Source: a virus
Lineage: Duplodnaviria; Caudoviricetes
Reading direction: 5' to 3' (one strand)
DNA: 39,786 bases
IMG/VR virus record: IMGVR_UViG_3300032318_001790
Span: 1 to 39,786 of that record
Position numbers and translations under genes: made by a program. The notes below the pieces were generated by a model. It was not told the DNA's origin. It saw only the letters and a program-made list of their open reading frames with translations, and did not search any database. Below, one piece after another: positions 12,088 to 39,786 of the stretch; the first letter of the stretch is position 1, and every line of letters begins with the position of its first letter.

Positions 12088-12092
12088 ATGTG

Positions 12093-14478: not shown

Positions 14479-14481
14479 ATG

Positions 14482-17867: not shown

Positions 17868-17868
17868 T

Positions 17869-18225
17869 TTATATATTTGTTATATCACCATCAATAGGGA
17901 ATTGTCCTTTTAAATATGTTCTAGTCGTATCACCCGAAGACAATTGTAAATCATAAACAAAAGTATCTGGCCCAATTAACATGCACTTTCCAGGTTTTGG
18001 GTTTAGGCGAATTTCGTTTCCAGAAACGCCGCCAATAAACATTGAACTATCAACCGTTGTCCACGATAAGACCGTTGATAATCCAGCCGCCTCTTTGACT
18101 TGAAGCGCGCCAGTAACGCCACTAACATTAACAGCACTTCCAGAGCTATCTAATAATTTAAATACTATTGGACCATAACTGTCGCCACGATATCCTGTTG
18201 GTAAATTATAAATTGCTGGAACCAT
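17869..18225 (-). CDS. BppU-N-like small baseplate/fibre adaptor protein
   Basis: YRGDS...F...YDLQL..G...TYLKG.F.I.GDIT pattern; GTGTAA upstream. Confidence 0.55.
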   Translation of the reverse strand: MVPAIYNLPTGYRGDSYGPIVFKLLDSSGSAVNVSGVTGALQVKEAAGLSTVLSWTTVDSSMFIGGVSGNEIRLNPKPGKCMLIGPDTFVYDLQLSSGDTTRTYLKGQFPIDGDITNI

Positions 18226-18235
18226 AATAATATTA

Positions 18236-18241
18236 TTACAC
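18236..18241 (-). promoter_or_regulatory. Candidate late promoter GTGTAA
   Basis: Upstream of ATG 18225. Confidence 0.6.
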
Positions 18242-18291
18242 TCTTTTATAAAAATTTAATTATAATAATATATTATTTTAAAATCTAATAA

Positions 18292-19575
18292 TTAAACGTA
18301 AAAATATGCAGCCACATTAACTGCTAAACCTGAAGCAAGATTACTAGCTCCAGAGTTAAAATTAGTTTGATAATAAAAAGATACATAATTTCCGCCTGTT
18401 ATTGGTATATTTAAATTTCCAGTAGAATTAGTATACATTGTATTCGAAGCAGGGATATTTATTCCAGATGTAACTTGAATTCCTGGTACATCGTCACGAG
18501 TTGACGCATTAGTTGCAAAATTTTTAAAATATCCAGTCATTGCACTACTTGGAATTGGTGCGTTAGTTTTTGCAATAGTAGTCCATACAATTTTTCTTAA
18601 AAAACAGTCTTGGAGTATTTGAACTCTTCTTTTTTCATTATTAGCTAAACTAACTGGATCAATATCCATTTGTGGTCCAAAATAATAATATTGCGATCCT
18701 GTGCTTGTATTATTTCGTACATGACCAAAATTTATAACAAATGGAGTAGATCCACTTAAAAGAACTCCAGTTCCATTAACTGTTGGTAGTGTTGAAAAAC
18801 TTGCCCCGCCATCAACACGCAAATTACCTCCACTTATATGAACTTTTTCAGCTGGAGAACTCGTGCCAAGACCAACCCTTCCATTAGTACCTAACCAAAG
18901 TTGTGGAAAATTCCCTGCAGTAAAACTAAGATTGTTATATGCAGTTACATTAGAATTCACTCCAGCAAATTCAAAAGCTGCAGCACCCCAAGAACTACTG
19001 ACATTTGTCAATACGCCTGTTGTACCATCTGATTTTCCTAAAAACGCCCCACCTTGAATAAGTGTAGATGGTACTTGACCACCAGCAGTTATATCAGCGC
19101 CCGAGATAGTTATCTTCCGAGCAACGATTCCAGTAGCGAAAGTTTTTACGCCGCTGATTGTTTGGTTGCCAGTGTTGTAAACTAAATTTGAGGCCAATAT
19201 TGGAACTCTTCCCAATATTTGTGTTGGATTGAATTCAATTATATCAGAAATTGGACCAGCTGTGGGGCTTATACCAATACCTATTTTATTATAACCATTA
19301 TAAGCTCCATAAATTACGCCATCACCATTTCCTCCAATGTTTGGAAATTGAAGTCCGCGCGCAGCATTTAATGATGATGGAGTCGCGGAAGATGCCAAAC
19401 CAACAGCGGTTCCGCTACTAAAAGTTTTTACGCCACCAATTGTTTGATCTCCAGTAATTGAAACACCAGAAAGATTTAAAAGCGCCTGTCCAGCATTAGA
19501 CGCATTTGTGCCGCCGCCAGAGATTGTGCGGACGCCACTTATTTCTACTACAGTTGTGCGGAATAGTCCAGTCAT
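18292..19575 (-). CDS. Tail fibre protein
   Basis: GGTNASNA..AL.NL, TG.QTI.GVKTF repeats, GRVGLGTSSP.EK.HI.GG fibre motif. Confidence 0.7.
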   Translation of the reverse strand: MTGLFRTTVVEISGVRTISGGGTNASNAGQALLNLSGVSITGDQTIGGVKTFSSGTAVGLASSATPSSLNAARGLQFPNIGGNGDGVIYGAYNGYNKIGIGISPTAGPISDIIEFNPTQILGRVPILASNLVYNTGNQTISGVKTFATGIVARKITISGADITAGGQVPSTLIQGGAFLGKSDGTTGVLTNVSSSWGAAAFEFAGVNSNVTAYNNLSFTAGNFPQLWLGTNGRVGLGTSSPAEKVHISGGNLRVDGGASFSTLPTVNGTGVLLSGSTPFVINFGHVRNNTSTGSQYYYFGPQMDIDPVSLANNEKRRVQILQDCFLRKIVWTTIAKTNAPIPSSAMTGYFKNFATNASTRDDVPGIQVTSGINIPASNTMYTNSTGNLNIPITGGNYVSFYYQTNFNSGASNLASGLAVNVAAYFYV

Positions 19576-19886
19576 GAGAATCTAATTTGTTTGTGTTCAT
19601 TTCCAACACGGCAGTTAATAAGTCCATACCCATCTGGAAGAGTAATATGGCAATCAATAAATTCCGCACCTTCTATTTTATGTTGGCTGTAAATTGTTTG
19701 CGCGGCGACAGCGTCTTCTGGCGAAGGATCGGTAATAGAACGCGCGCGAATACTGGCAAATAGTTCTTGAATTGCTTCTAAATTCTCGGGACTCGTGTTT
19801 ACAAGAACGGCCTGTTCTTCAGGAGTGACGTTTGGATCCAAGATTTGTTTCCATTCACCATTGATTAGTGTTAATTGTTTTTTCAT
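19572..19886 (-). CDS. Hypothetical protein
   Basis: 104 aa ORF, ATGA overlap with downstream fibre gene. Confidence 0.65.
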   Translation of the reverse strand: MKKQLTLINGEWKQILDPNVTPEEQAVLVNTSPENLEAIQELFASIRARSITDPSPEDAVAAQTIYSQHKIEGAEFIDCHITLPDGYGLINCRVGNEHKQIRFS

Positions 19887-19887
19887 A

Positions 19888-20784
19888 TTATTGGTTCACT
19901 AAATTATTGTTTTCGTCTATACAGTTGCGCATTAAACCTGCACCGGTAACAGTTTGAAAAGTACCAGAAGTTGAACGGCATTGATAAAATTTTCCGGATG
20001 CTGTTGAACCAGATCCACTGCCAAACGAATTATTGCCACCAATACAATTAGTAAATGTACCACTAGCTGTACCACTTATGTTGCCTATATTCCTACCACC
20101 AAAACCTCCAGCGCCAACAGACTCACAATCAATAAACGTACCAGAAGCTAGATTACCACTTCCAAAGCCACCATTGCTACTACAAATACAATTTACAAAA
20201 AGTCCAGAAGCTATACTTCCACTACTACCAGCACTGAAAGAATTACTTCCGCCTTCACAATTAATGAATGTACCGCTAGCTGTCATACCAACAAAACTAC
20301 TACTAGCAAAAGAGTTACTTCCACCCGTACAATTTATGAATGTTCCAGAAACAGTGGTGTTATTAAAACTATTATTACCACCAACACAATCTTCGAATAT
20401 TTGTAAAGTTAAATTAGCACCTGCACTAAAACTTTGGGTCCCTACACTAATTCCTTTAACTCTAACATCGTTTGCTGTTACGCTTAAGGTATTTCCATCA
20501 ATGATAACGGCTGGCGTAGCGCCGCGCCTTAATTTTATAGAACCCAAACCAATTAAATCCACAAATTGGGTATCAATCGTTAGCTGTGCCGCGAGCGTAT
20601 AATTCCCAGGCTGTATAATTACAGACACACGATTTGATGTGGAAAGCGCCGCGCCATTTGGCGTCAATGTTTTAGCATAATTATAAGCTTCAACTAAATT
20701 TTGGCCATTAGTAACGGCACTGTCCGTCAATTTTACATTGACGACCTGTCCTACGTTTAATCTGTTAATAATTTCTCCAGCCAT
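19888..20784 (-). CDS. Beta-solenoid repeat protein (tailspike-like)
   Basis: About six TASG(T/L)F(I/V)NC.GG.NSF repeats after a VSVIIQPGNY beta-helix cap motif. Confidence 0.6.
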   Translation of the reverse strand: MAGEIINRLNVGQVVNVKLTDSAVTNGQNLVEAYNYAKTLTPNGAALSTSNRVSVIIQPGNYTLAAQLTIDTQFVDLIGLGSIKLRRGATPAVIIDGNTLSVTANDVRVKGISVGTQSFSAGANLTLQIFEDCVGGNNSFNNTTVSGTFINCTGGSNSFASSSFVGMTASGTFINCEGGSNSFSAGSSGSIASGLFVNCICSSNGGFGSGNLASGTFIDCESVGAGGFGGRNIGNISGTASGTFTNCIGGNNSFGSGSGSTASGKFYQCRSTSGTFQTVTGAGLMRNCIDENNNLVNQ

Positions 20785-20788
20785 ATTT

Positions 20789-21631
20789 TTAACTTATTCC
20801 TGGGTTTGTGTTAAGACTTACCCATCCAGTAAACCCAACGTTATTTACACCAAGTAAATGGGCGCTTTCATTTTTATATAATTTTAAATTTACATTTCCA
20901 TCAATAAAATTTGAGCCAGTTACAGTTAATGTTCCTGTATTTAAGTTTTTTACAATATAATTTCTTCCACTTGCTATGGCTGGCAGGGTGCCGGTAATGC
21001 CGCTTGTACTATTTGCTAAATTAATATAATTATTACCTAAAGTTATGCTTGTTGTAAAATAATTGTAATCGCCACTACTGTAGACTAAATTTGGTGCAAA
21101 TATATTGGAAGTAAAAGTTTTTACGCCGCTGATTGTTTGGTTGCCAGTATTGTAAACGAGATTCGGAGCAAAGATTCCAGTAGCGAAAGTTTTTACGCCG
21201 CTGATTGTTTCATTCCTCCCAGTTACATGCACAACATTAGCATCTATAGGAACCGTTCCTCCATAACCCGATTTAAAACGATAATTAATCCCTGGGAACG
21301 AGGTTAAGACAATTTCTTCACTATTAAACTCAAGACTCATTTCGTCGCTCCCTCTGGTAAAGGTAAACCCACCATCTACAGACCCTATTGATTGATAAGA
21401 TTCCGAACTGGTTTCCCACAATTGTATTTCTGCATCGCTAAGATCGCCGGGGTTTCCGATTCCGAGAGGTGAAACGATTCCAGTAGCGAAAGTTTTCTTG
21501 CCCCCAATCGTTTGGTTGCCTGTAGTAAAAACAGTAGAATTGTTAGAAGAAAAATATCCGCTGCCATACTGACCCACAAGATCATTAATATCTGGGTGCA
21601 ATTGATTTTTTCTAATTAAACTTCTACTCAT
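20789..21631 (-). CDS. Tail fibre protein
   Basis: Three TGNQTI.G.KTF-like repeats; C-terminal TLPA...GR.YIVKN...T.TV....IDG domain. Confidence 0.65.
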   Translation of the reverse strand: MSRSLIRKNQLHPDINDLVGQYGSGYFSSNNSTVFTTGNQTIGGKKTFATGIVSPLGIGNPGDLSDAEIQLWETSSESYQSIGSVDGGFTFTRGSDEMSLEFNSEEIVLTSFPGINYRFKSGYGGTVPIDANVVHVTGRNETISGVKTFATGIFAPNLVYNTGNQTISGVKTFTSNIFAPNLVYSSGDYNYFTTSITLGNNYINLANSTSGITGTLPAIASGRNYIVKNLNTGTLTVTGSNFIDGNVNLKLYKNESAHLLGVNNVGFTGWVSLNTNPGIS

Positions 21632-26427: not shown

Positions 26428-27528
26428 TTAGCCACTGACCATTTCATCAATATCAATTCCACGAATAACGGCTTTTAATTCGTCCATCGAAGATAAACGT
26501 TTTGCCTCTTCTTCTAGATTTTGTTTTTGCGCCTCTGCTAAATTGATAATACTCTTTCGCCGCTCCTCGTCTTTCCACGCCTGTACTAAATTTAAGATAC
26601 TAGCGTTTTCCTGTCTACGGTCCTGCATTTTTTTAGAACGATCATCTACCAAGGATTTATATAGTTTATTCTGTCTAGTACGACATTGATTGTATTCTGT
26701 TTGTAAACTACTAATAGCTTCATTCAAACTCATTTTGATATTCCGACCCTCGTCTTCTTCGGACGCCGTTCTTAATAGCTGGCGCAAGTCTTCAACCTGT
26801 TGTAAAATACTTGAAGCTGTAACTGTTTCAGTACAAAGAGTGATAAACTGATCCAATTCTTCCTGAGTAAGATCATCTTTATCATAAGTATAACGAATAA
26901 AAGCATCCTCAAAAAGTTTTCTATCATCCTCTCTTTTATAAGTATTAATTTGATAACAAAAACTAAAAGTATTCATATACCTTTGCAGGGTTTCTACCTG
27001 TTTGAGTTGAGTGGCTTTTAGTTTACCCTGCTCCCACCCAATATTAAGATATTTATTAATTCTATAAAGCGTTTGGTCAAGACGTCTTGGTGGAAAATAT
27101 TCTCCCATAGGCCCTGGAGCTTGATTCTCTGTGGGGGCATAAGTTTTCATCTCAAGATACGTAGGATCACTTTTTTGTATTTTTTCTACCAACTTGTTAA
27201 CCTCTCTAGACTCTAGACTTAAATGCGTTAAATTATTATTTTTAAATAAAATTTTAGCCATATCTAAGTAGTGTTGATTTTTATAGTTATTCTTTATAAA
27301 CTCTTCATGTTCAGCGGTTAAAGAAACCCTGTCTCTTTGGAATACAGATCTATTTTTATATTCTATATTGTTATCTAATAAAAACTGTTTTAGAGCCCTA
27401 CCCTCTTTGCTTCTACTATCAACCGTTTCATTTTCATAAGCATAAGCCGTAATTTCAGTTAAAGTTGCGTCTGGATTTTTTTGCAATATTTCTTTTACCC
27501 TATTTTGCTGTTGTTGATCAAGTTCCAT
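26428..27528 (-). CDS. Hypothetical helical protein, candidate terminase small subunit
   Basis: 366 aa, HTH-like N-terminus and coiled-coil C-terminus, two genes upstream of terL; function from position only. Confidence 0.45.
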   Translation of the reverse strand: MELDQQQQNRVKEILQKNPDATLTEITAYAYENETVDSRSKEGRALKQFLLDNNIEYKNRSVFQRDRVSLTAEHEEFIKNNYKNQHYLDMAKILFKNNNLTHLSLESREVNKLVEKIQKSDPTYLEMKTYAPTENQAPGPMGEYFPPRRLDQTLYRINKYLNIGWEQGKLKATQLKQVETLQRYMNTFSFCYQINTYKREDDRKLFEDAFIRYTYDKDDLTQEELDQFITLCTETVTASSILQQVEDLRQLLRTASEEDEGRNIKMSLNEAISSLQTEYNQCRTRQNKLYKSLVDDRSKKMQDRRQENASILNLVQAWKDEERRKSIINLAEAQKQNLEEEAKRLSSMDELKAVIRGIDIDEMVSG

Positions 27529-28232
27529 TAGACGACCTCCTTTACAATTTCGCGCGCTTTTTGTAGAATGCGCGATTTAATTTTACTAATTTGTCTATAG
27601 GCTGGGCGGCCCTCTTTCAAACTTAGTTTGTAACCCATTTTCTTAGCAACCTCCGAGTCATCAAAATGTTGCAAGAACATATAATCATATACTTTCCATT
27701 CTATATTGCTTAAATGTTTTTTCATCATTTCGTGGAAAAGCGGCATGAGGTCTTCTATATTTATATTATTTTCAGTATCGTGCAAAACACTTTCTAATGT
27801 TGTTTCTGGATTGTCATGGTTAGGACTGTGCATACTTAATGGGAATTTAACATCATAGGCGGACTTTTTACTTTTCTCCCACTTCTTATAGTCTTTGCAG
27901 GAATTATTTTGTGAACCATAAATAGAACAACCGTACTCGCCAGTATTAAATGGGCACTTTAGGCAAGGCCTAGAGAAATTCGAATAATGGTTTCTTAGCA
28001 TGTTTGTCATCTGGTGGTTGATAACCTGATTAAGCCATGGCCTTAAAGGTCTTTTACAATCCCATTTCTCCCATTTCTTATAAATATGTAATCTTAATCT
28101 TTGGGACACATCGTCAAAATCCATCCATGCGATAGCTGTTAAGTGCCAACGGTGTTTACGTTTTTGAATTTCAGAATTGATAATATCTATCGACTCTTCG
28201 AAGGTGGGCCTTACAACTTTTTTGGAAGGCAT
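27528..28232 (-). CDS. Phage RNA polymerase sigma factor (sigma70/ECF-like) with Cys4 insertion
   Basis: Region 2 DFDDVSQ...WD..RPL.PWL..VI.HQM.N.LR; region 4 LS.IE.KV.......DDSEVAKKMG...ISKIKSRILQK; CLKC...C...C insert. Confidence 0.75.
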   Translation of the reverse strand: MPSKKVVRPTFEESIDIINSEIQKRKHRWHLTAIAWMDFDDVSQRLRLHIYKKWEKWDCKRPLRPWLNQVINHQMTNMLRNHYSNFSRPCLKCPFNTGEYGCSIYGSQNNSCKDYKKWEKSKKSAYDVKFPLSMHSPNHDNPETTLESVLHDTENNINIEDLMPLFHEMMKKHLSNIEWKVYDYMFLQHFDDSEVAKKMGYKLSLKEGRPAYRQISKIKSRILQKAREIVKEVV

Positions 28233-32438: not shown

Positions 32439-32763
32439 GTTAAATTAAACTTATAGAAATAAAATAGGCCCCCGAATTTTTTAGATTTGATTATTATTAT
32501 TTAAACTCATTTGTCCCCGAAGTTCTAGAAAAGGGTGGGGGGTACATATATATAAGAATAGGGATGTTTATACATAAACATAGTAATATGTATATAGAAT
32601 ATAGACTTATAAGAATAGCGGGTTAAATTAAATTAATTAAAATAAAAGATGAGGAGATTGAAATTTCACCCCCCCGGACCTAAAAAATCAAACGCTTGTT
32701 CGAATTTTCTCAAAAATAGGGGGGGCATCAACAAAAATACTTTGCAGAATCGTAAAAAAATCC

Positions 32764-32791
32764 TTGTGTTTTGGCCGTCCTGTGGTAGAGT
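32764..32791 (+). promoter_or_regulatory. Leaderless sigma70-type promoter P1
   Basis: TTGTGT-N16(TGTGG)-TAGAGT, 6 nt to ATG 32798, A-tract upstream. Confidence 0.7.
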
Positions 32792-32797
32792 GTAAGC

Positions 32798-32974
32798 ATG
32801 ATTAAGAACCAATACAGCACAGCAGAGTTGACCGCCGCCCTTGGCAATCCCTACTTCGTCGGCCTAAACCTTCGCGTTTGGAGAGTCGCAACGAAACGCG
32901 GATCCTACGAGTTCAAAGCCAGCCGCACCCCAAGGACTGACTTCTGGAGCGTCAACAAAAAAAAGTTACGCTAA
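32798..32974 (+). CDS. Small early protein, family A (58 aa)
   Basis: Not in ORF track; MIKNQYSTAEL...LNLRVWRVATKRGSYEFK...; paralog of 34949-35131. Confidence 0.8.
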   Translation: MIKNQYSTAELTAALGNPYFVGLNLRVWRVATKRGSYEFKASRTPRTDFWSVNKKKLR

Positions 32975-32988
32975 TCGAAAAAAATCCT

Positions 32989-33016
32989 TTGACTTTCGCC
33001 GCAACTCTGATACATT
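32989..33016 (+). promoter_or_regulatory. Leaderless promoter P2
   Basis: TTGACT-N16(TGA)-TACATT, 6 nt to ATG 33023. Confidence 0.75.
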
Positions 33017-33022
33017 AAAAGC

Positions 33023-33208
33023 ATGAAAAAGAAAAACACCTACAAAGTCACCGCATCAATCTCCAACGACATCGGTTCATACCCTCTACCCGTTACGTTA
33101 GAAGTTGCCGCCTATGGCATCGGTTGGATCTCCCATGAGGTTGAAAAAGCTTTGAACGTGAATCTCCCCTTCGACGGCGAGATCATAAAGATCGAAAAAA
33201 TCTCTTGA
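33023..33208 (+). CDS. Small early protein, family B (61 aa)
   Basis: YKVTA...YGIGW...EIIKIEKIS; paralog of 35391-35570. Confidence 0.8.
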   Translation: MKKKNTYKVTASISNDIGSYPLPVTLEVAAYGIGWISHEVEKALNVNLPFDGEIIKIEKIS

Positions 33209-33232
33209 CTCTCACGATAACTCTGATACATT
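33205..33232 (+). promoter_or_regulatory. Leaderless promoter P3
   Basis: TTGACT-N16(TGA)-TACATT, 6 nt to ATG 33239; -35 contains the upstream TGA stop. Confidence 0.75.
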
Positions 33233-33238
33233 AAATAC

Positions 33239-33466
33239 ATGAATACATACGAAAAATACTTCACCTATCAAGGCTGCGAATACTACCTCTGCACAGAGTA
33301 TGCGTTCGATCATGCCGATCAACTGCAACTCTCTGACTTCTCCTTGCAGAGAGATGGCGACGAAGTCTCGCAAGAGAGCTTCGAAGCAAACCAAGGGCTC
33401 TATGACATTGTCTGCGAGATCCTTGCTAACGAAGATGCTGTCTGCTATGGCGGCGCACCTTGCTAA
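33239..33466 (+). CDS. Small acidic early protein (75 aa)
   Basis: ORF at the fixed distance from P3. Confidence 0.75.
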   Translation: MNTYEKYFTYQGCEYYLCTEYAFDHADQLQLSDFSLQRDGDEVSQESFEANQGLYDIVCEILANEDAVCYGGAPC

Positions 33467-33484
33467 CACTATAGAACATTCTGT

Positions 33485-33658
33485 ATGACAAAGATACCTC
33501 TCAACATGGATGCTCGTTCACTCGTAAAGGAAATCAATCGCAGCAAGCGCAGGACTATGACAAAGCGCACTATGACAAACAATGCTATGACATACATTGG
33601 AGAGGCCCTTGCCGTGGTGCTCATCTTCATGCTTGGCGTTGCGATCCTTTCTCTGTAA
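33485..33658 (+). CDS. Small early protein, family C, with C-terminal TM helix (57 aa)
   Basis: Not in ORF track; MTKIPLNMDARSLVKEINRSKRRT...ALAVVLIFMLGVAILSL; stop lies inside element E1. Confidence 0.65.
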   Translation: MTKIPLNMDARSLVKEINRSKRRTMTKRTMTNNAMTYIGEALAVVLIFMLGVAILSL

Positions 33659-33732
33659 GCTGTTGTAAATCAACGACTTACGACGGAGGGCCGGGCGCGC
33701 GAACGTAACCCCTTGATAATCAAGCACTTACG
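33654..33732. repeat. 79-bp double-palindrome element E1 (core inverted)
   Basis: tgtaagctgttgtaaatcaacgacttacg + acggagggccgggcgcgcgaa + cgtaaccccttgataatcaagcacttacg. Confidence 0.95.
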
Positions 33733-33743
33733 AATAGGTGCGA

Positions 33744-33772
33744 ATACTACCACAACACGCACAAGATGTCAA
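33744..33772 (-). promoter_or_regulatory. Reverse sigma70-type promoter facing E1
   Basis: Minus strand TTGACA-N17(TGTGG)-TAGTAT; predicted +1 near 33737. Confidence 0.6.
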
Positions 33773-33816
33773 GCAAAAAAGATAAAAAAAATTTCACATA
33801 ATCGTAAAAAAATCCC

Positions 33817-33844
33817 TTGCTTTTTGCGCGTCTTGTGGTATTCT
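33817..33844 (+). promoter_or_regulatory. Leaderless promoter P4
   Basis: TTGCTT-N16(TGTGG)-TATTCT, 6 nt to ATG 33851. Confidence 0.75.
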
Positions 33845-33850
33845 GTATAC

Positions 33851-34123
33851 ATGAAAAAAGAAATAAACACCATAGAAGAAGCCAAAAACCTGTCCGTCAT
33901 GGACTTCATGGAACGCACTCCGTTGGAGCGTAAGCTGATCGACGAACTCAAGCGCGTCGAATCCCAAGTCGAACTCTTGCAAGAGTGGCTCGAAAACTCT
34001 CACAGAACGTGCGGCCTGTTGCGTGATGCGCGTGACAGCTATCGTCGTCAACTCGGCATCTCGTCCGATTGGGACACGATGGAATCAGTCCGTGACAAAT
34101 ATGACGCCAGACATGGCGGCTAA
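33851..34123 (+). CDS. Small coiled-coil early protein (90 aa)
   Basis: Start moved from 33713 to ATG 33851 on promoter spacing. Confidence 0.75.
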   Translation: MKKEINTIEEAKNLSVMDFMERTPLERKLIDELKRVESQVELLQEWLENSHRTCGLLRDARDSYRRQLGISSDWDTMESVRDKYDARHGG

Positions 34124-34132
34124 AAAAACTTC

Positions 34133-34161
34133 TTGCCTAAACTCTCAACTCAACCTATCCT
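34133..34161 (+). promoter_or_regulatory. Leaderless promoter P5
   Basis: TTGCCT-N17-TATCCT, 6 nt to ATG 34168. Confidence 0.65.
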
Positions 34162-34167
34162 AACAAC

Positions 34168-34383
34168 ATGAACATCATCAACGACGACTTCAATACGCAA
34201 CCGCAATCCGACGAATACGCTACCGAGCACGAGGACGTGCGCGGCACGTTCGCCGTCGAACCTGCCGTCGAGCAGGAACCGGAACCGCAACCCTACGATG
34301 GGTGCGAGGGCCAATGGGCTGGCGATGGGTCGGGCTTCGACGACCTCGCTGACTTGGGCGAGCAGGAGGGTCACGACTGGTAA
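34168..34383 (+). CDS. Very acidic small protein, family D (71 aa)
   Basis: IINDDFNTQPQSDEYATE motif shared with 38370-38504. Confidence 0.8.
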   Translation: MNIINDDFNTQPQSDEYATEHEDVRGTFAVEPAVEQEPEPQPYDGCEGQWAGDGSGFDDLADLGEQEGHDW

Positions 34384-34387
34384 CACT

Positions 34388-34618
34388 ATGACACAAAACG
34401 AAAACATCATGAAATCTCTGCACGCGCTTGCCAAGCAAGAGCAAACTTTGCAGGCTCAAGAGGCTGAAATGACAGAGCTAAAAAATCTTTTGTCTCGCGC
34501 CCTGTATACTATCACAGCACACGAATACAAGCTGAACATCCTTTGCGAAACCAACATTGTTCTTTCGCGTGAAGTGCAAGCAATGCGCGATCAGCAATTT
34601 TCTTTCGGAGTCAACTAA
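34388..34618 (+). CDS. Small coiled-coil protein (76 aa)
   Basis: ATG 4 nt after previous stop; MTQNENIMKSL... Confidence 0.7.
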   Translation: MTQNENIMKSLHALAKQEQTLQAQEAEMTELKNLLSRALYTITAHEYKLNILCETNIVLSREVQAMRDQQFSFGVN

Positions 34619-34619
34619 C

Positions 34620-34772
34620 GTGAGCAAAATAATTATGACAATCGACGTGCGCCCACTCGCGCGCGAGATTGAGCGCAGCGTTCGAAGGACGACTTGTCGT
34701 CCTTCATTCGCCATGCGTGTCAAGAAAAAATTCGCGCGCAAGGCAAAGTTTTTTAGCGGTTGGTCTGAGTAG
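34620..34772 (+). CDS. Small basic protein, family C (50 aa)
   Basis: GTG start; SKIIMTIDVRPLAREIERSVRRT resembles 33485 ORF; stop overlaps start of E2. Confidence 0.6.
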   Translation: MSKIIMTIDVRPLAREIERSVRRTTCRPSFAMRVKKKFARKAKFFSGWSE

Positions 34773-34849
34773 TAAAGCGTTGAATATCAACGACTTACGG
34801 CGGCGCGCCCCGCCGCGCGACATAAGTGCTTGAAAATGAACGACTTATG
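34771..34849. repeat. 79-bp double-palindrome element E2
   Basis: agtaaagcgttgaatatcaacgacttacg + gcggcgcgccccgccgcgcga + cataagtgcttgaaaatgaacgacttatg. Confidence 0.95.
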
Positions 34850-34859
34850 CAATATGCTA

Positions 34860-34876
34860 CGCAAGTGCCATGCCAA
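34860..34876 (-). promoter_or_regulatory. Sigma54 -24/-12 promoter facing E2
   Basis: Minus strand TTGGCATGGCACTTGCG; exact GG-N10-GC spacing; +1 at 34849. Confidence 0.7.
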
Positions 34877-34914
34877 CTTTGCCAAAAGCGCAAAAATAAA
34901 AATAAAAAAATCCC

Positions 34915-34942
34915 TTGCGTTTTTGCAGTCCTGTGGTATTCT
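34915..34942 (+). promoter_or_regulatory. Leaderless promoter P6
   Basis: TTGCGT-N16(TGTGG)-TATTCT, 6 nt to ATG 34949. Confidence 0.75.
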
Positions 34943-34948
34943 TTAACC

Positions 34949-35131
34949 ATGAAAAAGAAATACTACACCAGCGCGGAAATCATCGAGTTCGCCACAAAAA
35001 ACAGTGCGGCTTGCGCGTTCGCCTCTTTGAGTTTGCGCGTGTTCAAATACTGGACGGCGAAAGGTTCTTACGAGGTCAAATTCCATCGGGTTGAGCCGTT
35101 GGTCTGGCAAAAGAAAATCGTAAAGAAATAA
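34949..35131 (+). CDS. Small early protein, family A (60 aa)
   Basis: Start moved to ATG 34949; YTSAEI...LSLRVFKYWTAKGSYEVK. Confidence 0.8.
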   Translation: MKKKYYTSAEIIEFATKNSAACAFASLSLRVFKYWTAKGSYEVKFHRVEPLVWQKKIVKK

Positions 35132-35140
35132 AAAAACCTG

Positions 35141-35169
35141 TTGACAAAATCAATCCTCTAACCTATTCT
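35141..35169 (+). promoter_or_regulatory. Leaderless promoter P7
   Basis: TTGACA-N17-TATTCT, 6 nt to ATG 35176. Confidence 0.8.
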
Positions 35170-35175
35170 TTAACT

Positions 35176-35355
35176 ATGAAAAATAAAACACCACAAAAAA
35201 GCCAAATCTGGAAAGTCGGAACGCGCTGCTTCCGCATAGTGCGCATCGAAGGCGGTCAGGCCGTTGTGCGCCATCACGAAGAATTCGGAAAGTTTTTTCT
35301 GAATGACTTGCGCCCTGCAAGTGCCGAAGAAGTTCGCGCATACTTCAAAAAATAG
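35176..35355 (+). CDS. Small early protein (59 aa), SH3/beta-barrel-like pattern
   Basis: Not in ORF track; MKNKTPQKSQIWKVGTRCFRIVRIEGGQAVV...LRPASAEEVRAYFKK. Confidence 0.75.
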   Translation: MKNKTPQKSQIWKVGTRCFRIVRIEGGQAVVRHHEEFGKFFLNDLRPASAEEVRAYFKK

Positions 35356-35356
35356 T

Positions 35357-35384
35357 TTGACAAAACAGATTTTTCTGATAGATT
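35357..35384 (+). promoter_or_regulatory. Leaderless promoter P8
   Basis: TTGACA-N16(TGA)-TAGATT, 6 nt to ATG 35391. Confidence 0.75.
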
Positions 35385-35390
35385 AAAAGC

Positions 35391-35570
35391 ATGAAAGAGA
35401 AAAAATCCTACATGGTAACGGCGCGTGACTCACGCGAAAAAGAAATCGTTCACACCACGACTGTAAAATCATATGGTATCCGTTGGGCGATTGAAGATGC
35501 CTCAAAAGAGTTTTCGGACACTATTCCAGAACCCTTCATCGAAATCGTGAAGGTTGAAAAAATCTCTTGA
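35391..35570 (+). CDS. Small early protein, family B (59 aa)
   Basis: Not in ORF track; MKEKKSYMVTA...YGIRW...EIVKVEKIS. Confidence 0.8.
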   Translation: MKEKKSYMVTARDSREKEIVHTTTVKSYGIRWAIEDASKEFSDTIPEPFIEIVKVEKIS

Positions 35571-35602
35571 CCCTAACCACAAAAACAAACAAAATAGAAA
35601 CC

Positions 35603-35692
35603 ATGTCAATCTGGATACCACTCTTTTACCTGTGCATCATGCCTGCCGCTTGCGGTTTCTTAATCCTCTGGGCTGATTCCAGAAAAAAATAA
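35603..35692 (+). CDS. 29-aa single-TM peptide
   Basis: MSIWIPLFYLCIMPAACGFLILWADSRKK after weak promoter TTGACC-N17-CAAAAT (35567-35595). Confidence 0.55.
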   Translation: MSIWIPLFYLCIMPAACGFLILWADSRKK

Positions 35693-35696
35693 TCTC

Positions 35697-35927
35697 ATGA
35701 AAAAATACATCACATTCGACAATATGCTTTTGGCAACAAGTGCTGCCCTCATCTTGTCCCTGCTAACTTCACTTCTGGTCATCGCCGTTGCTTCACAGCA
35801 AAAATGGTTCGATACTAATCACGAACTTCAAAACGATGTCCAAACAATGTTTGAGCATCTTGAAAAACCGCTCGCCATGAATACCTCTGGCTATCCCTCC
35901 TACCCAAATCATCCCAAAAATGCCTAA
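35697..35927 (+). CDS. Small membrane-anchored protein (76 aa)
   Basis: N-terminal hydrophobic helix. Confidence 0.7.
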   Translation: MKKYITFDNMLLATSAALILSLLTSLLVIAVASQQKWFDTNHELQNDVQTMFEHLEKPLAMNTSGYPSYPNHPKNA

Positions 35928-35935
35928 ACAATAAT

Positions 35936-36142
35936 ATGATAACACCAAACATCCAAAGAGCCCTCGAATCAAACGGCGTTCGTTTCTATGCCAAAGACTT
36001 CCTCATGGAAGGAATGCGGAAAGACTGCGTTGACGCTGTGCATGACGCGCACCTTGTTTACAAGTTGCTGAAAGAACGCATGGAGAAAATGCTTGCCATC
36101 GAACCCACTGAATCCGAACAGCAATACCCTCAACACTCATGA
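35936..36142 (+). CDS. Small early protein (68 aa)
   Basis: In operon, ATGA overlap with next gene. Confidence 0.7.
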   Translation: MITPNIQRALESNGVRFYAKDFLMEGMRKDCVDAVHDAHLVYKLLKERMEKMLAIEPTESEQQYPQHS

Positions 36143-36330
36143 ATAAAAAACAAATCATCACCGCGTGTGACGCGTCAAACAGTGTCATACAAAAAATTAA
36201 ATCTGCGCTGGGCCTTCAGAAAAAAGAGCCATCGCTTCTTTGTCATAGTCTCGCGCACCTCAACGGCGCGACATGGCTTGAAAGAATCTCGTCAAATGGA
36301 ATCTTGAACGAATACATCGTAAGACGCTGA
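36139..36330 (+). CDS. Small early protein (63 aa)
   Basis: Stop TGA inside E3. Confidence 0.6.
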   Translation: MNKKQIITACDASNSVIQKIKSALGLQKKEPSLLCHSLAHLNGATWLERISSNGILNEYIVRR

Positions 36331-36396
36331 TAATCAAGCACTTACGGCGGCGCGCCCCGCCGCCCAGCGTAAGTCGTTGAAAATCAACACGTTACG
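36318..36396. repeat. 79-bp double-palindrome element E3
   Basis: cgtaagacgctgataatcaagcacttacg + gcggcgcgccccgccgcccag + cgtaagtcgttgaaaatcaacacgttacg. Confidence 0.95.
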
Positions 36397-36406
36397 CAAA
36401 ACATGG

Positions 36407-36423
36407 AGCAGGAACCGTGCCAA
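36407..36423 (-). promoter_or_regulatory. Sigma54 -24/-12 promoter facing E3
   Basis: Minus strand TTGGCACGGTTCCTGCT; +1 at 36396. Confidence 0.75.
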
Positions 36424-36501
36424 CAATGAGTGTCATAAAAATTCAAACGCCTGTTTGAAAAACGTCAACAAAAATACTTTCAGCTAATCGAAAAAAATCC
36501 C

Positions 36502-36529
36502 TTGTGTTTTTGGCAACCTGTGGTATTCT
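36502..36529 (+). promoter_or_regulatory. Leaderless promoter P10
   Basis: TTGTGT-N16(TGTGG)-TATTCT, 6 nt to ATG 36536. Confidence 0.75.
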
Positions 36530-36535
36530 TTAATT

Positions 36536-36775
36536 ATGAAAGTTACCAAAGTCGAACTACTCGACGCACTACTACAAGCTCGCACCGCTCTTGCAAAAGA
36601 CATTAGCGACTTTAACAAAAGCCGCAACGGATTCTTTGCCAAAGAATTTCGCGCTTCACTCCGCGAAAAAATCGCGGCTCATCGTATCCTTTCCCACATC
36701 GACACGATTGACGCTGAACTCTATTCGTTCGACGCTCGCACCCGCGCAAGGGTCAAAAAAGCTCTTGCCAAGTAA
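36536..36775 (+). CDS. Small basic helical protein (79 aa)
   Basis: ORF at the fixed distance from P10. Confidence 0.75.
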   Translation: MKVTKVELLDALLQARTALAKDISDFNKSRNGFFAKEFRASLREKIAAHRILSHIDTIDAELYSFDARTRARVKKALAK

Positions 36776-36800
36776 GGCAAACTCTGCAAAAATAAACACC

Positions 36801-37481
36801 ATGAAACTACTCGCAACCAACACCAAATTGGAAAAGGGCGCAAGCTACGGCTGGCGCACACTCGGACTCTCACTCTCTCCCGCCAGTAAAAGCGGAAAAC
36901 AATTCTGTCCGCATCGTTCTCCAGGGTGTGAATTTGTTTGCCTTGATGAATCGGGCATGGGCATTTTTCAGAACGTGCAAGACGCACGCCTTGCAAAATC
37001 GCGTTACTTCATCGACAACCGCAACACATTTGTCGCGCAATTAAACCGCGAGATTCACAACGCAGAAAAACTTTCCACGCGCACGAAAATTCCCGTTGCT
37101 GTTCGTCCGAATGTCTTGTCTGATCTTCCGTGGCATAACCTCATCGACATGGCGCGTTTTCCTTCCATTCAGTTTTACGACTACACGCCGAACCTTGAGC
37201 GCATGATGCAATTCCTGCGCGGCGAGTTGCCGAAAAATTATCATCTTACTTTCTCGCGCAAGGAAAATAATCAGCACAAGGTTCATGCTGTCATCGCGGC
37301 TGGCGGCAACGTGGCCGTGGCGTTTAATCGCTTACCGGAAACATACCTTGGCTTGCCTGTCATCGACGGCGACAAAAGCGATCTGCGCTTTCTCGATCCC
37401 AAAGGTGTCATAGTTGGACTCAAAGCCAAGGGCAAAGGTAAAAAAGATGCCTCTGGATTCGTGGTGCAAGTTGGCGTATAA
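36801..37481 (+). CDS. GP88-family protein (Cys-cluster, radical-SAM-like), 226 aa
   Basis: Start moved to ATG 36801; NTKLEK, LSLSPA, CPHRSPGC...CL, VRPNVLSD..W, QFYDYT, NYHLTFS, IDGD.SDLRFLDP.GVIVGLKAKG recognised as the phage gene-product-88 family. Confidence 0.75.
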   Translation: MKLLATNTKLEKGASYGWRTLGLSLSPASKSGKQFCPHRSPGCEFVCLDESGMGIFQNVQDARLAKSRYFIDNRNTFVAQLNREIHNAEKLSTRTKIPVAVRPNVLSDLPWHNLIDMARFPSIQFYDYTPNLERMMQFLRGELPKNYHLTFSRKENNQHKVHAVIAAGGNVAVAFNRLPETYLGLPVIDGDKSDLRFLDPKGVIVGLKAKGKGKKDASGFVVQVGV

Positions 37482-37490
37482 TGAACACCT

Positions 37491-37562
37491 ATGGAAATAA
37501 TCTGTCTGCTTGTCGTCGTGGCGGCTTGTGCCTTTGCAATCAATCAAAATCAAAAACTATGA
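37491..37562 (+). CDS. 23-aa hydrophobic peptide
   Basis: MEIICLLVVVAACAFAINQNQKL; ATGA overlap with next ORF. Confidence 0.4.
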   Translation: MEIICLLVVVAACAFAINQNQKL

Positions 37563-37717
37563 CACTCAACCTAATCGCACGAAAAAATCTTTTCCGCTTG
37601 TCGGAAGGACTGTTCAGCCTCGGACAAAAATCGGAACGTCACGGCTTTATGACACTCTCGAAAATGTTTGTCATAGGGTGGGAGCGTTGCCTTGACTTGC
37701 GCGACAGGCTGCGGTAA
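37559..37717 (+). CDS. Small early protein (52 aa; alternative start 37481)
   Basis: MTLNLIARKNLFRLSEG...; TAA stop abuts E4. Confidence 0.55.
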   Translation: MTLNLIARKNLFRLSEGLFSLGQKSERHGFMTLSKMFVIGWERCLDLRDRLR

Positions 37718-37796
37718 CGTAAGACGTTGAAAATCAACGGGTTACGACGGCGCGCCCCGCCGCCCGTCGTAAGTGCTTGACGTTCAGCAACTTATG
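37718..37796. repeat. 79-bp double-palindrome element E4
   Basis: cgtaagacgttgaaaatcaacgggttacg + acggcgcgccccgccgcccgt + cgtaagtgcttgacgttcagcaacttatg. Confidence 0.95.
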
Positions 37797-37949
37797 CATT
37801 TATAAAAAATAGAAAATCGTCAGTAGAAATAGATAAATAATTACTATGTCTTAATTGTTACTATTTGCCCCATATCTATTTCGCAATTTTCTGGCAAACT
37901 TGTCAAGCATAAAAATACAAAAATAAAAAATAAAAATACAAAAAATATC

Positions 37950-37977
37950 TTGTGTTTTTTCAGATGTGTGATATTCT
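37950..37977 (+). promoter_or_regulatory. Leaderless promoter P12
   Basis: TTGTGT-N16(TGTGA)-TATTCT, 7 nt to ATG 37985, phased A-tracts upstream. Confidence 0.7.
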
Positions 37978-37984
37978 TTCTTTG

Positions 37985-38179
37985 ATGAATAAACAAACCA
38001 CCAAGTGCCCCAAGTGCGGGGGAAAAGCCACATCAACCTACGAGCCACCCTATCAGGAATACGCTGGAGCCAGCGTGCAGGGCGGCTACTACTACGTCGA
38101 GTGCGCGTGCGGTCACGAGGGCACCCAGAAGGCCAGCCTAGAGGACTACAACTGGCAAGAGAACACAAGGGGTTGGTAA
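37985..38179 (+). CDS. Small Zn-finger protein (64 aa)
   Basis: CPKCGG...ECACGH; stop inside E5. Confidence 0.75.
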   Translation: MNKQTTKCPKCGGKATSTYEPPYQEYAGASVQGGYYYVECACGHEGTQKASLEDYNWQENTRGW

Positions 38180-38253
38180 CCCCTTAATTCTCAATCAGTT
38201 ACGCTGGCGCGCCCCGCCGCGCGGCGTAAGTGCTTGATATTCAACACGTTACG
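38175..38253. repeat. 79-bp double-palindrome element E5
   Basis: ggtaaccccttaattctcaatcagttacg + ctggcgcgccccgccgcgcgg + cgtaagtgcttgatattcaacacgttacg. Confidence 0.95.
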
Positions 38254-38263
38254 CAAAATGTAG

Positions 38264-38280
38264 AGCAGGAAGCGTGCCAA
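38264..38280 (-). promoter_or_regulatory. Sigma54 -24/-12 promoter facing E5
   Basis: Minus strand TTGGCACGCTTCCTGCT; +1 at 38253. Confidence 0.75.
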
Positions 38281-38335
38281 GTCCGAATCTTTTTTTCGTC
38301 AACAAAAATACTTTCTAAAAATGCAAAAAAAATCG

Positions 38336-38363
38336 TTGCACTCTCGCGCCCTGCTGCTATTCT
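38336..38363 (+). promoter_or_regulatory. Leaderless promoter P13
   Basis: TTGCAC-N16(TGC)-TATTCT, 6 nt to ATG 38370. Confidence 0.7.
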
Positions 38364-38369
38364 TTACCC

Positions 38370-38504
38370 ATGCAAGCGAACTCCATCATCACTGACGACT
38401 TCAACACGCAAATCCAAAGCGACGAGTTTGCCTCGGAATTTGAGGCTTGGCTCGACGAGCAGGAACTGAAATACTGGCAGGACATCGACGCTCGCGGAAA
38501 TTAA
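38370..38504 (+). CDS. Very acidic peptide, family D (44 aa)
   Basis: Not in ORF track; MQANSIITDDFNTQIQSDEFASEFEAWLDEQELKYWQDIDARGN. Confidence 0.75.
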   Translation: MQANSIITDDFNTQIQSDEFASEFEAWLDEQELKYWQDIDARGN

Positions 38505-38508
38505 TTTT

Positions 38509-38685
38509 ATGACAAACACAAACCCACTCAAAGGCCTCGTCTCCGTTTGCTGCGGAGCCGAACACGACATCAACGCCGAACACGGCATCAAAAACGAAAC
38601 CGCAATCGGTGGCTGCTCGGCTTGCGGACGCTACTCGGAGTTTGACATCTTCGAGAACTTCGTTGAAAACAACCTTGACCTCTAA
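38509..38685 (+). CDS. Small Zn-binding protein (58 aa)
   Basis: Not in ORF track; VSVCCGA...GGCSACGRYSEF. Confidence 0.75.
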   Translation: MTNTNPLKGLVSVCCGAEHDINAEHGIKNETAIGGCSACGRYSEFDIFENFVENNLDL

Positions 38686-38703
38686 ACCCTCAACACCTAA
38701 ACT
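38675..38703 (+). promoter_or_regulatory. Short-leader promoter P14
   Basis: TTGACC-N17-TAAACT, 9 nt to ATG 38713. Confidence 0.6.
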
Positions 38704-38712
38704 CTAAAACTT

Positions 38713-39159
38713 ATGAACCAAGCAAACATCGTAATCAGCGCATACGGCAACGGCATTGCCGTTGGCCTTCACGGCACACGCGAAGAAATCGAAAAAAACT
38801 TCAACCGCTTCTTCAACTGGGGCGCAACTGGAATCGGAGAACTCGGAGACTACTTACACGACCTCTCGGATAACTTCTCCTACTTCCTCTCCACGGAAAC
38901 GGATATGCTTCGCGCTATGACATACGAGACTATGACAAAGTGGCAGGACTCTCCGGTAAGCGAGCAATACAAAGCGCGCCCACGTTTCTACAAGAAACCA
39001 AACGGAACAAAGTTTCGCACCGATGCCGTAGGTGCTGCGCGTGACGAATACGAATCTTTCCCGCGTGAAAGTTTCATGCTCCAGATGAAATCACCCTCAC
39101 ACATCTATCAGCAACTCGACGGCGGTGCGCCTTCGTGGAGTAGCGAAACGGAGGACTAA
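38713..39159 (+). CDS. Hypothetical protein (148 aa)
   Basis: Clean ORF after P14. Confidence 0.75.
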   Translation: MNQANIVISAYGNGIAVGLHGTREEIEKNFNRFFNWGATGIGELGDYLHDLSDNFSYFLSTETDMLRAMTYETMTKWQDSPVSEQYKARPRFYKKPNGTKFRTDAVGAARDEYESFPRESFMLQMKSPSHIYQQLDGGAPSWSSETED

Positions 39160-39162
39160 TAT

Positions 39163-39612
39163 ATGGAAATACCACCCATTAAATTATTCGATGTTATTCT
39201 TAATCCAATTCTTAAAAAATCATGGATTCATTTTGAGATTGAAGCTACGGACGAGGCAGGAAGAAAGTATTATGAAAGCTCTCATAGCTATGGCGTTTTT
39301 GCTCCTCCTTATCCTGCTTTCCCATGCTATGCTGGAGAAAATCATCTTACAAATAAACATCCTTATGGTCATACATTAGAACCTTTTGATGTTAATAAAA
39401 TAATGAGAAGACTTAACTCTTACGAATGGATCGCTGGGGTTAAATCAATTAAGTTTAGCAATCAAGTTTATGTTTGTCATAAAACTTATATTGTTTGGCA
39501 ATTTGCAAATAAAAAAGTAGAAGGAACATCCCATTTTGAAATAAAAGAGCTACCTAAAGATAAAAAAAATGTTTATGTTTGTGATGAACAAAGATATCTC
39601 TTAAGTGATTGA
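39163..39612 (+). CDS. Hypothetical protein (149 aa), AT-rich
   Basis: Clean ORF; composition differs from neighbours; stop inside E6. Confidence 0.7.
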   Translation: MEIPPIKLFDVILNPILKKSWIHFEIEATDEAGRKYYESSHSYGVFAPPYPAFPCYAGENHLTNKHPYGHTLEPFDVNKIMRRLNSYEWIAGVKSIKFSNQVYVCHKTYIVWQFANKKVEGTSHFEIKELPKDKKNVYVCDEQRYLLSD

Positions 39613-39678
39613 TAATCAAAGACTTACGGCGGCGCGCCCGGCGAATCGTCGTAAGTCATTGAGCCACAGGACTTTGTG
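39600..39678. repeat. 79-bp double-palindrome element E6 (right end degenerate)
   Basis: cttaagtgattgataatcaaagacttacg + gcggcgcgcccggcgaatcgt + cgtaagtcattgagccacaggactttgtg. Confidence 0.85.
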
Positions 39679-39786
39679 GATTATACTTTAGGGTGCTAAT
39701 CATTGAAGCCAATTTGACAATTGATTCTGCAAAGTCTTTGTTCTTATTCTTCATTTTGTTGATAAGCTGTTCCCTAATCTCTGGAT

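Follow-up and report, generated by a model that had tools for sequence, protein, structure and literature searches.

A 79-bp palindromic module with IHF-like half-sites at the ends of early genes in a family of uncultured phages

Six copies of a 79-bp composite element were found in the early gene block of a virus of the Caudoviricetes (Duplodnaviria), IMG/VR record IMGVR_UViG_3300032318_001790; the window analysed here is the whole record (39,786 bp, estimated completeness 26%). Each element consists of two 29-bp palindromes on either side of a core of almost pure G and C, and its half-sites follow the consensus TCAA-sGAs-TTACG, which resembles the sequence recognised by IHF. In six of six cases the element overlaps the stop codon of the upstream open reading frame (ORF) or stands no more than 1 nt from it, the same layout recurs in about 100 viral contigs from many samples, and relatives have exchanged gene cassettes at these positions. 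The leading, though still tentative, explanation is that the elements are boundary modules, each made of two symmetrised sites for an IHF/HU-type protein around a GC core, and that they double as points at which cassettes are swapped.

Layout of the elements and their family

The six copies align without gaps in the order H1, 3-bp spacer, H2, 21-bp GC-rich core, H3, 3-bp spacer and H4, with H1 (13 bp, consensus cGTAAsTCsTTGA) and H2 (consensus TCAAsGAsTTACG) forming the left palindrome, H3 and H4 the right one; in every copy, 50 bp separate the two palindrome centres. Scanning the 39.8-kb window with a profile of 129 family members (see below) yielded these six elements and no others. The rows below give mismatches for H1/H2/H3/H4 in turn against WATCAANNNNTTR, the E. 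coli IHF consensus, which may not be that of the host.

E1, 33654..33732: H1 33654-33666, H2 33670-33682, core 33683-33703, H3 33704-33716, H4 33720-33732; centres 33668 and 33718; profile E-value 9e-18; mismatches 2/0/0/0; TAA stop of ORF 33485-33658 inside H1
E2, 34771..34849 (profile match 34772-34849): H2 34787-34799, core 34800-34820, H3 34821-34833; centres 34785 and 34835; profile E-value 1.6e-18; mismatches 1/0/1/1; stop of the upstream ORF (34770-34772) adjoins H1
E3, 36318..36396: H2 36334-36346, core 36347-36367, H3 36368-36380; centres 36332 and 36382; profile E-value 5e-20; mismatches 1/0/1/0; TGA stop of ORF 36139-36330 inside H1
E4, 37718..37796: H2 37734-37746, core 37747-37767, H3 37768-37780; centres 37732 and 37782; profile E-value 4.4e-18; mismatches 1/0/2/3; ORF 37481-37717 ends 1 nt ahead of H1
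E5, 38175..38253 (profile match 38176-38253): H2 38191-38203, core 38204-38224, H3 38225-38237; centres 38189 and 38239; profile E-value 6e-18; mismatches 1/1/0/1; TAA stop (38177-38179) of a small zinc-ribbon-like ORF inside H1
E6, 39600..39674, at the end of the + strand early block: H2 39616-39628, core 39629-39649, H3 39650-39662; profile E-value 1.8e-15; mismatches 0/0/2/4; TGA stop of ORF 39163-39612 inside H1

In E6, the right palindrome is degenerate and H4 is replaced by a small hairpin (39664-39679), a terminator-like site followed by a T-rich tail; a minus-strand ORF comes next, and no promoter stands behind this element.

The pattern H2-core-H3 was present at no fewer than 196 loci in viral contigs. 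Family statistics rest on the matches listed, at least 180 of them unique and 129 with a 21-bp core, five of these 129 coming from the window. Among the 180 unique matches listed, the core measured 21 bp in 129, 22 bp in 22, 19 bp in 17 and another length in 12; its length was constant within a lineage (19, 21 or 22 bp), so that whole lineages have their palindrome centres 48 or 51 bp apart. A preliminary description of this DNA had placed the centres always 50 bp apart, which is correct for the six window elements but not for the family. The four half-sites stay in register across the family, and the core, although almost free in sequence, remains GC-rich and in most cases has a run of C or G at its centre. 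Complete relatives (148-178 kb) carry 11 to 14 copies each, and in one of them all 11 copies lie within 17.9-32.2 kb, the sole island of 44-48% GC. Genome contigs of 185,579 species contained 24 loci with the pattern, approximately the number expected by chance, of which only three (L201, L218 and L219) were family-like, which marks the composite element as a feature of phages. The four commonest 13-mers occurred in none of the papers searched, and word searches on phage intergenic repeats with IHF sites yielded no similar element.

IHF likeness and candidate binding proteins

Exact matches to WATCAANNNNTTR were enriched in the window (16, compared with 4.44 ± 2.16 in shuffled sequences; maximum 9, none of 100 shuffles reaching 16), and ten of the 16 fell inside the elements, which make up about 1.2% of the window. 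As the preliminary description had reported, ten of the 24 window half-sites match the consensus exactly and most of the others are one or two bases away (nine with one mismatch, three with two, one with three and one with four); 19 of the 24 thus have at most one mismatch. The search pattern fixed only H2-core-H3 and left the outer half-sites H1 and H4 free, and these therefore provide an unbiased view of conservation. Their information content was 0.51 bit at W, 0.21 at A, 1.42 at T0, 1.01 at C1, 2.0 at A2, 1.14 at A3, 0.59 at position 4, 0.95 at G5, 0.86 at A6, 0.60 at position 7, 1.93 at T8, 1.93 at T9, 1.78 at A10, 0.85 at C11 and 0.79 at G12. The seven strongest positions (T0, C1, A2, A3, T8, T9 and A10) are exactly the bases specified by IHF, and all others have 0.95 bit or less. 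TCAA-N4-TTR was present in 134 of the 258 outer half-sites of the family; the commonest variant of TCAA in family half-sites was TCAG, which we take to agree with the WATCAR form of the IHF consensus.

The spacing within the palindromes is equally strict. The spacer measured 3 bp in 129 of 129 members of the ungapped family alignment. The AA steps in the two arms are thus separated by 9 bp and the dyad falls on the middle spacer base, which is also the W of the consensus; A or T occupies it in 78% and 92% of members at the two spacers. According to passages of PMC5829579, 6 bp separate a T-to-A change in the TTR element from the IHF kink closest to it, and HU favours distortions about 9 bp apart, like those of the IHF-H' complex. 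The palindromes have this geometry, with TTR about 6 bp from the kink and the kinks about 9 bp apart. We take T44 to be the middle base of TTR, which would place the kink at the AA step of TCAA and the protein dyad on W; on this assignment, the dyad is located to within 1 bp. Because both half-sites of a palindrome share one dyad, one dimer would be expected per palindrome and two per element. The preliminary description, which had read each palindrome as two back-to-back IHF sites and counted up to four per element, was therefore right about the likeness to IHF but not about the number of sites, and each palindrome is likely to be one symmetrised site for a predicted IHF/HU-type dimer. The footprint of IHF is approximately 35 bp, so that, at a centre-to-centre distance of 50 bp, two footprints would cover all of the core but roughly its middle 15 bp.

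Whether the partner comes from the phage or the host bears on a second explanation, possible but doubtful, in which the 13-bp half-sites are recognised by a sequence-specific protein, of phage or host origin and unrelated to IHF, that works as a dimer of dimers. Such a protein could, for example, repress or insulate early genes by bringing together the two palindromes or adjacent modules, and the likeness to IHF would then be a coincidence or a result of shared DNA mechanics. The 13 informative positions per half-site, including G5, A6, C11 and G12, which IHF leaves unspecified, are in line with this proposal, as are the strict 3-bp spacer and the lineage-constant core, which would be expected of a site and a partner that co-evolve, and the lack of the composite in host chromosomes, the three family-like matches among the 185,579 species all being on contigs of metagenome-assembled genomes (MAGs). 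However, a Pfam scan of the 194 ORFs of one complete relative (G001), which identified a DnaE-type polymerase, DnaB, a primase, ThyX, a class II ribonucleotide reductase, sigma-like proteins and a tape measure protein, revealed no integrase, resolvase, Y1 transposase or recognised DNA-binding regulator, leaving small phage proteins of no known family as possible binders. The only protein family common to all seven early regions compared was GP88 (DUF932 occurred in six), which is encoded in the window as follows.

36801-37481, + strand: GP88-family protein (PF17338, PHROG 1617)

The nearest cultured relatives of this protein, with no more than 45% identity, are found in Pelagibacter, Roseobacter and other podophages, and cultured-phage records contained no DNA match to the element region, though some carry GP88, which weakens the case for GP88 as the partner. 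The seven strongest positions together with a spacer that matches the geometry of IHF would also amount to a large coincidence if the protein were unrelated to it. Moreover, the motif is constant across very diverged lineages while cores, spacers and neighbouring genes diverge, from which we infer that a conserved host factor would be a better fit than a co-evolving phage protein. HU/IHF (PF00216) was absent from all five relatives searched, four of them complete. By general comparison, the sites of integron attC, FNR/CRP, Fis, CtrA and lox-type systems do not appear to fit in spacing or letters.

Gene ends, strand symmetry and cassette exchange

Downstream of the elements, promoter-like sequences stand directly before gene starts. 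The motif TGnTAnnnT followed by ATG exactly 6 nt on occurred ten times in the window (1.79 expected), eight times on the + strand of the early block:

32783, 33008, 33224, 33836, 34934, 35376, 36521 and 38355, + strand: TGnTAnnnT promoter-like sites

Those at 33836, 34934, 36521 and 38355 come after E1, E2, E3 and E5, respectively, where they take the form TTG-N17-TGnTATTCT with ATG exactly 6 nt past the -10 box, and where the distance from T0 of H2 to the promoter TTG is 128-168 nt; E4 is followed by the same kind of promoter with a 7-nt gap to ATG. The promoter sites belong to repeat families D5 and D8. No Shine-Dalgarno motif was found ahead of early or late genes, and the early genes appear to be leaderless. 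Across the family, the promoter-plus-ATG motif lay downstream (within about 300 nt) on the A-rich strand in 59 of 113 elements and on the other strand in 11 of 113. Its distance from the element ranged from 87 to 295 nt, so that the element belongs to the end of the upstream unit and not to the next promoter. Open frames running into the elements were about as frequent in the sense direction (44 of 113) as in the antisense direction (40 of 113), a count that gives no information on gene ends. Between element and promoter, a GTGCCAA box was seen about 25-35 nt past H4 and a CGTCAACAAAAATACTTTC box about 40 nt ahead of the -35 box; conserved intergenic boxes of the window are as follows.

36397-36520 and 38254-38340; also 32726-32772 and 32950-32996: conserved intergenic boxes

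The place of the elements just past stop codons, at the ends of transcription units, would also suit a folded single strand, RNA or DNA, that ends or stabilises early mRNAs or serves as a processing site, like the stabilisers formed by repetitive extragenic palindromic (REP) sequences or the RNase III sites of T7, and the predicted folds are strong (-20 to -37 kcal/mol). We nevertheless consider this explanation unlikely. Rfam contained no family matching any part of the window. Terminator-like sites were about as frequent in the window as expected (12 and 10.0, respectively) and none lay at E1-E5, after which no U tract follows on either strand; a hairpin with a T run was present only at the flank of E6. 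In the local hairpins, 81.5% of cells were paired compared with 80.7% in shuffles, and the covariation score (0.098 versus 0.093) was reached by 29 of 500 shuffles, in agreement with the preliminary observation that the variable triplets do not co-vary to keep pairing, which applies to the window and the family alike. Covariation, which had been named there as a check, gave a divided outcome: no RNA signal in the local hairpins but pairing above shuffles in a central hairpin model (74.8 versus 72.8% paired, 0 of 500 shuffles), a point in favour of a folded strand. The latter signal came from few pairs, with 35-58% of core cells unpaired, and the fifth H2/H3 stem pair, at the first variable position, was broken in 105 of 128 sequences, a kept mismatch that could itself be a recognition feature. 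The GC core was also tried as a hairpin apex and rejected, its minimum free energy (-22.2) differing little from that of shuffled cores (-21.4; mean z -0.29); only the core pairs 13-33, 14-32, 20-26 and 21-25 leaned to complementarity.

A comparison of the two strands likewise points away from a folded transcript. The outer half-sites, each read in its own orientation, were degenerate in the same way (profile r = 0.97). Sense-strand mismatches were more often C-A than G-U in H1/H2 (157 vs 55) and less often so in H3/H4 (69 vs 102), an opposite bias in the two hairpins which indicates that neither strand is protected. The C-run of the core was oriented towards the A-rich strand in 88 elements and towards the opposite one in 41, so that the core occurs both ways round with respect to transcription. 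Of the contigs from RNA libraries X17-X20, which come only from relatives with 85-95% likeness and give neither ends nor strand, some end close to E2 or E3, and others run through E4 and E5, which argues against full termination, unless these represent DNA carry-over. It is the primary sequence that is conserved, not the pairing, a pattern that fits recognition of two-fold symmetric double-stranded DNA. The preliminary description had favoured a protein site on double-stranded DNA over an RNA hairpin, and the results for Rfam, local hairpins and strand bias bear this out.

Comparison with relatives revealed that gene cassettes are gained and lost at the elements. One such cassette lies between E4 and E5:

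37950..38179, + strand: E4-E5 cassette, with promoter-like TTG...TATTCT and one 64-codon ORF (37985-38179)

It is absent from three complete relatives (G001, G002 and G003), which have one hybrid element with a left flank like that of E4 and a right flank like that of E5, and the order of blocks differs among relatives. Joints between blocks were taken from DNA contigs of four other runs, with 15 of 20 joints listed. Among these 15, eight touch an element and four have both ends in elements, which occupy 6.4% of the stretch, and other joints are at promoters or gene borders. The four are:

34801>38206, 36380>38187, 36388>37732 and 37780>36338: element-to-element joints

The low-GC ORF 39163-39612 (+ strand) stands directly before E6. 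Relatives and contigs of other runs have different sequence in its place, as though a cassette had recently been swapped there with E6 as the right border.

Element-to-element joints, together with the gain and loss of cassettes and the repetition of whole intergenic regions comprising element, spacer boxes and promoter (families D3-D5 and D11), could be taken to mean that the elements are mainly selfish or neutral repeats which spread with promoters by recombination and have no selected role beyond that of crossover points. This is improbable given that conservation is position-specific over the roughly 100 contigs while the cores diverge completely, that spacer and core lengths are strict, that GC richness is kept in an AT-rich genome, and that no transposase or recombinase family was found among the 194 ORFs of the complete relative.

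In the boundary-module explanation, a host dimer would kink each palindrome at its two AA steps, and two sharp bends 50 bp apart would flank a stiff GC segment. The resulting nucleoprotein fold would set early units of strong transcription apart from one another, either by topological insulation or by blocking read-through, and the repeated modules would serve as crossover points at which relatives gain, lose and reorder cassettes. With 11-14 modules per genome, each likely to contain two sites and multiplied by the genome copies present during infection, the array might instead act as a decoy that soaks up host IHF/HU, an idea already raised in the preliminary description. We regard this as highly improbable: a decoy would need neither a fixed place at operon ends nor a GC core, and cells known to have IHF contain it in abundance. 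A combined scheme is unlikely as a whole, in which an IHF-type host protein would clamp the module into two U-turns around stiff GC, insulate leaderless operons and drain the host pool at the same time, with the modules serving as swap points for early cassettes across a large uncultured lineage.

Several observations weigh against the boundary-module explanation. Firstly, the site departs from that of IHF: G5, A6, C11 and G12 are conserved (0.95, 0.86, 0.85 and 0.79 bit) although IHF leaves them free, W and A carry little information (0.51 and 0.21 bit), and the full consensus is present in only 169 of 516 family half-sites. Strong IHF sites have one asymmetric consensus, flanked on the 5' side by an A/T-rich arm, whereas here no A/T tract stands beside the consensus and an inverted half-site forms the 5' arm, giving a 29-bp palindrome. 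An IHF-type protein of the true host would be needed, and the consensus used for scoring is that of E. coli. Secondly, 50 bp corresponds to 4.76 and not five helical turns (at 10.5 bp per turn), so that the bends would be out of phase; the in-phase bends about five turns apart envisaged in the preliminary description thus have to be given up, all the more as whole lineages have spacings of 48 or 51 bp. Thirdly, when H2 and H3 are read along one strand, their first variable bases are identical in 95 of 129 elements, and they form a Watson-Crick pair in 20 (58.7 expected), a value reached in none of 10,000 permutations, a test that overstates significance because the elements are related. As a consequence of this anticorrelation, the inner half-sites are nearly always unlike, one being 'C-type' and the other 'G-type', which is accounted for by no bending-protein model. 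Both arrangements occur within the window (E3 versus E2 and E4), the link between the G-type half-site and core polarity is weak (57 vs 38), and the conserved mismatch may point to a further partner. In addition, the excess of pairing in the central hairpin means that some single-strand fold may exist, RNA-library contigs run across E4 and E5, and the distance from element to next promoter varies (87-295 nt in the family). The boundary or insulator role is inferred by analogy with bacterial interspersed mosaic elements (BIMEs) and their IHF-binding class, the RIBs. The joints derive from metagenome contigs and may include assembly errors at repeats, and the three family-like loci outside viral contigs are on MAG contigs with discordant labels (Alphaproteobacteria, Verrucomicrobiales and Thiobacillus).

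Known systems and genomic surroundings

Passages of PMC3333891 place REP/BIME elements, including RIBs, at the 3' ends of transcription units and attribute to them the attenuation of transcription, the stabilisation of mRNA and topological insulation. As far as these passages describe them, the E. coli RIB/RIP elements (BIME-1) resemble the present ones in being repeated intergenic mosaics at 3' unit ends that combine GC-rich palindromic DNA with an IHF or IHF-like site, and the position at the upstream stop is shared by six of six window elements. In contrast to BIME-1, in which two REPs flank one IHF site, two IHF-like palindromes here flank one GC core, which is not a REP hairpin, as it folds no better than shuffles. 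Further differences are the location in a phage and not a chromosome, the 11-14 copies in place of hundreds, the IHF binding, which here is predicted only, and the lack of a Y1_Tnp match among the 194 ORFs of G001. The PeSLs (promoter early stem-loops) of T4 are characterised in PMC4122927 as composite terminator/promoter motifs and exchange points that create indels and replacements. On that account the elements resemble them: both are composite motifs lying among small early genes of plastic regions, both are followed by an early promoter and both act as exchange points. The present elements differ in that the module consists of four half-sites without a U tract and the promoter is 87-295 nt away. 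An intrinsic-type terminator stem-loop was not found, there being no hairpin with a T run at E1-E5, and there is no sequence relation, the present phage not being T4-like. With the canonical IHF site (WATCAANNNNTTR, for example lambda H'), the elements share TCAA-N4-TTA as the strongest positions, AA kink steps 9 bp apart and W on the dyad; they differ in carrying the consensus on both palindrome arms without an A/T tract, in four further conserved positions and in the pairing of sites 50 bp apart around a GC core. Since defining features of RIB/BIME-1, PeSL and the canonical IHF site are each lacking, the element was assigned to none of them.

If the boundary-module explanation is true, the element would be a phage counterpart of bacterial BIME/RIB elements and T4 PeSLs, namely a compact and portable 79-bp mark of operon ends that probably works through a host architectural protein, and the modules would organise the shuffling of early 'host take-over' genes among relatives. 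It would then aid the annotation of transcription units and cassette borders in uncultured large phages, and the palindrome would offer a natural symmetric site for studies of IHF/HU recognition.

Bases 1 to about 32,400 of the window contain late and structural genes at roughly 30-45% GC, including those for the terminase large subunit (TerL), an endolysin, tail proteins, a sigma-like factor, PhoH and Hsp20, and from about 32,650 on small + strand genes at 42-51% GC form the early block that holds all six elements. This block is a GC island in the window (42-51%, 32650-39786) as in the complete relative G001 (44-48%, 15-35 kb), in a genome of about 31% GC overall. Sequencing runs with near-identical DNA are mostly labelled freshwater. 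No cultured relative was found, the DNA search giving a single unrelated 80-bp match, and TerL is at most 25% identical to those of large Bacillus and Clostridium phages. WhiB, which would hint at an actinobacterial host, was absent from all five relatives, and the window contains no tRNA genes.

A few minor features of the window were also noted. GTGTAA lies about 15-25 nt ahead of many minus-strand late-gene starts (e.g. 8719, 18225, 23546, 28640 and 30041) and may be a late promoter for the phage sigma-like protein (27528-28232, Sigma70_r2). The tail-fibre-like genes (11800-15150 and 16400-21530) contain long internal repeats, among them tandem units of 54 nt (17157-17577) and paralogous blocks some 800 and 1590 nt long. 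The 8-mer CTATGACA occurs in 11 copies (eight on the + and three on the - strand; 1.03 expected) between 33400 and 38937, all within the early block; some copies overlap gene starts (ATGACA), and three are spaced 15 nt apart inside ORF 33485-33658.

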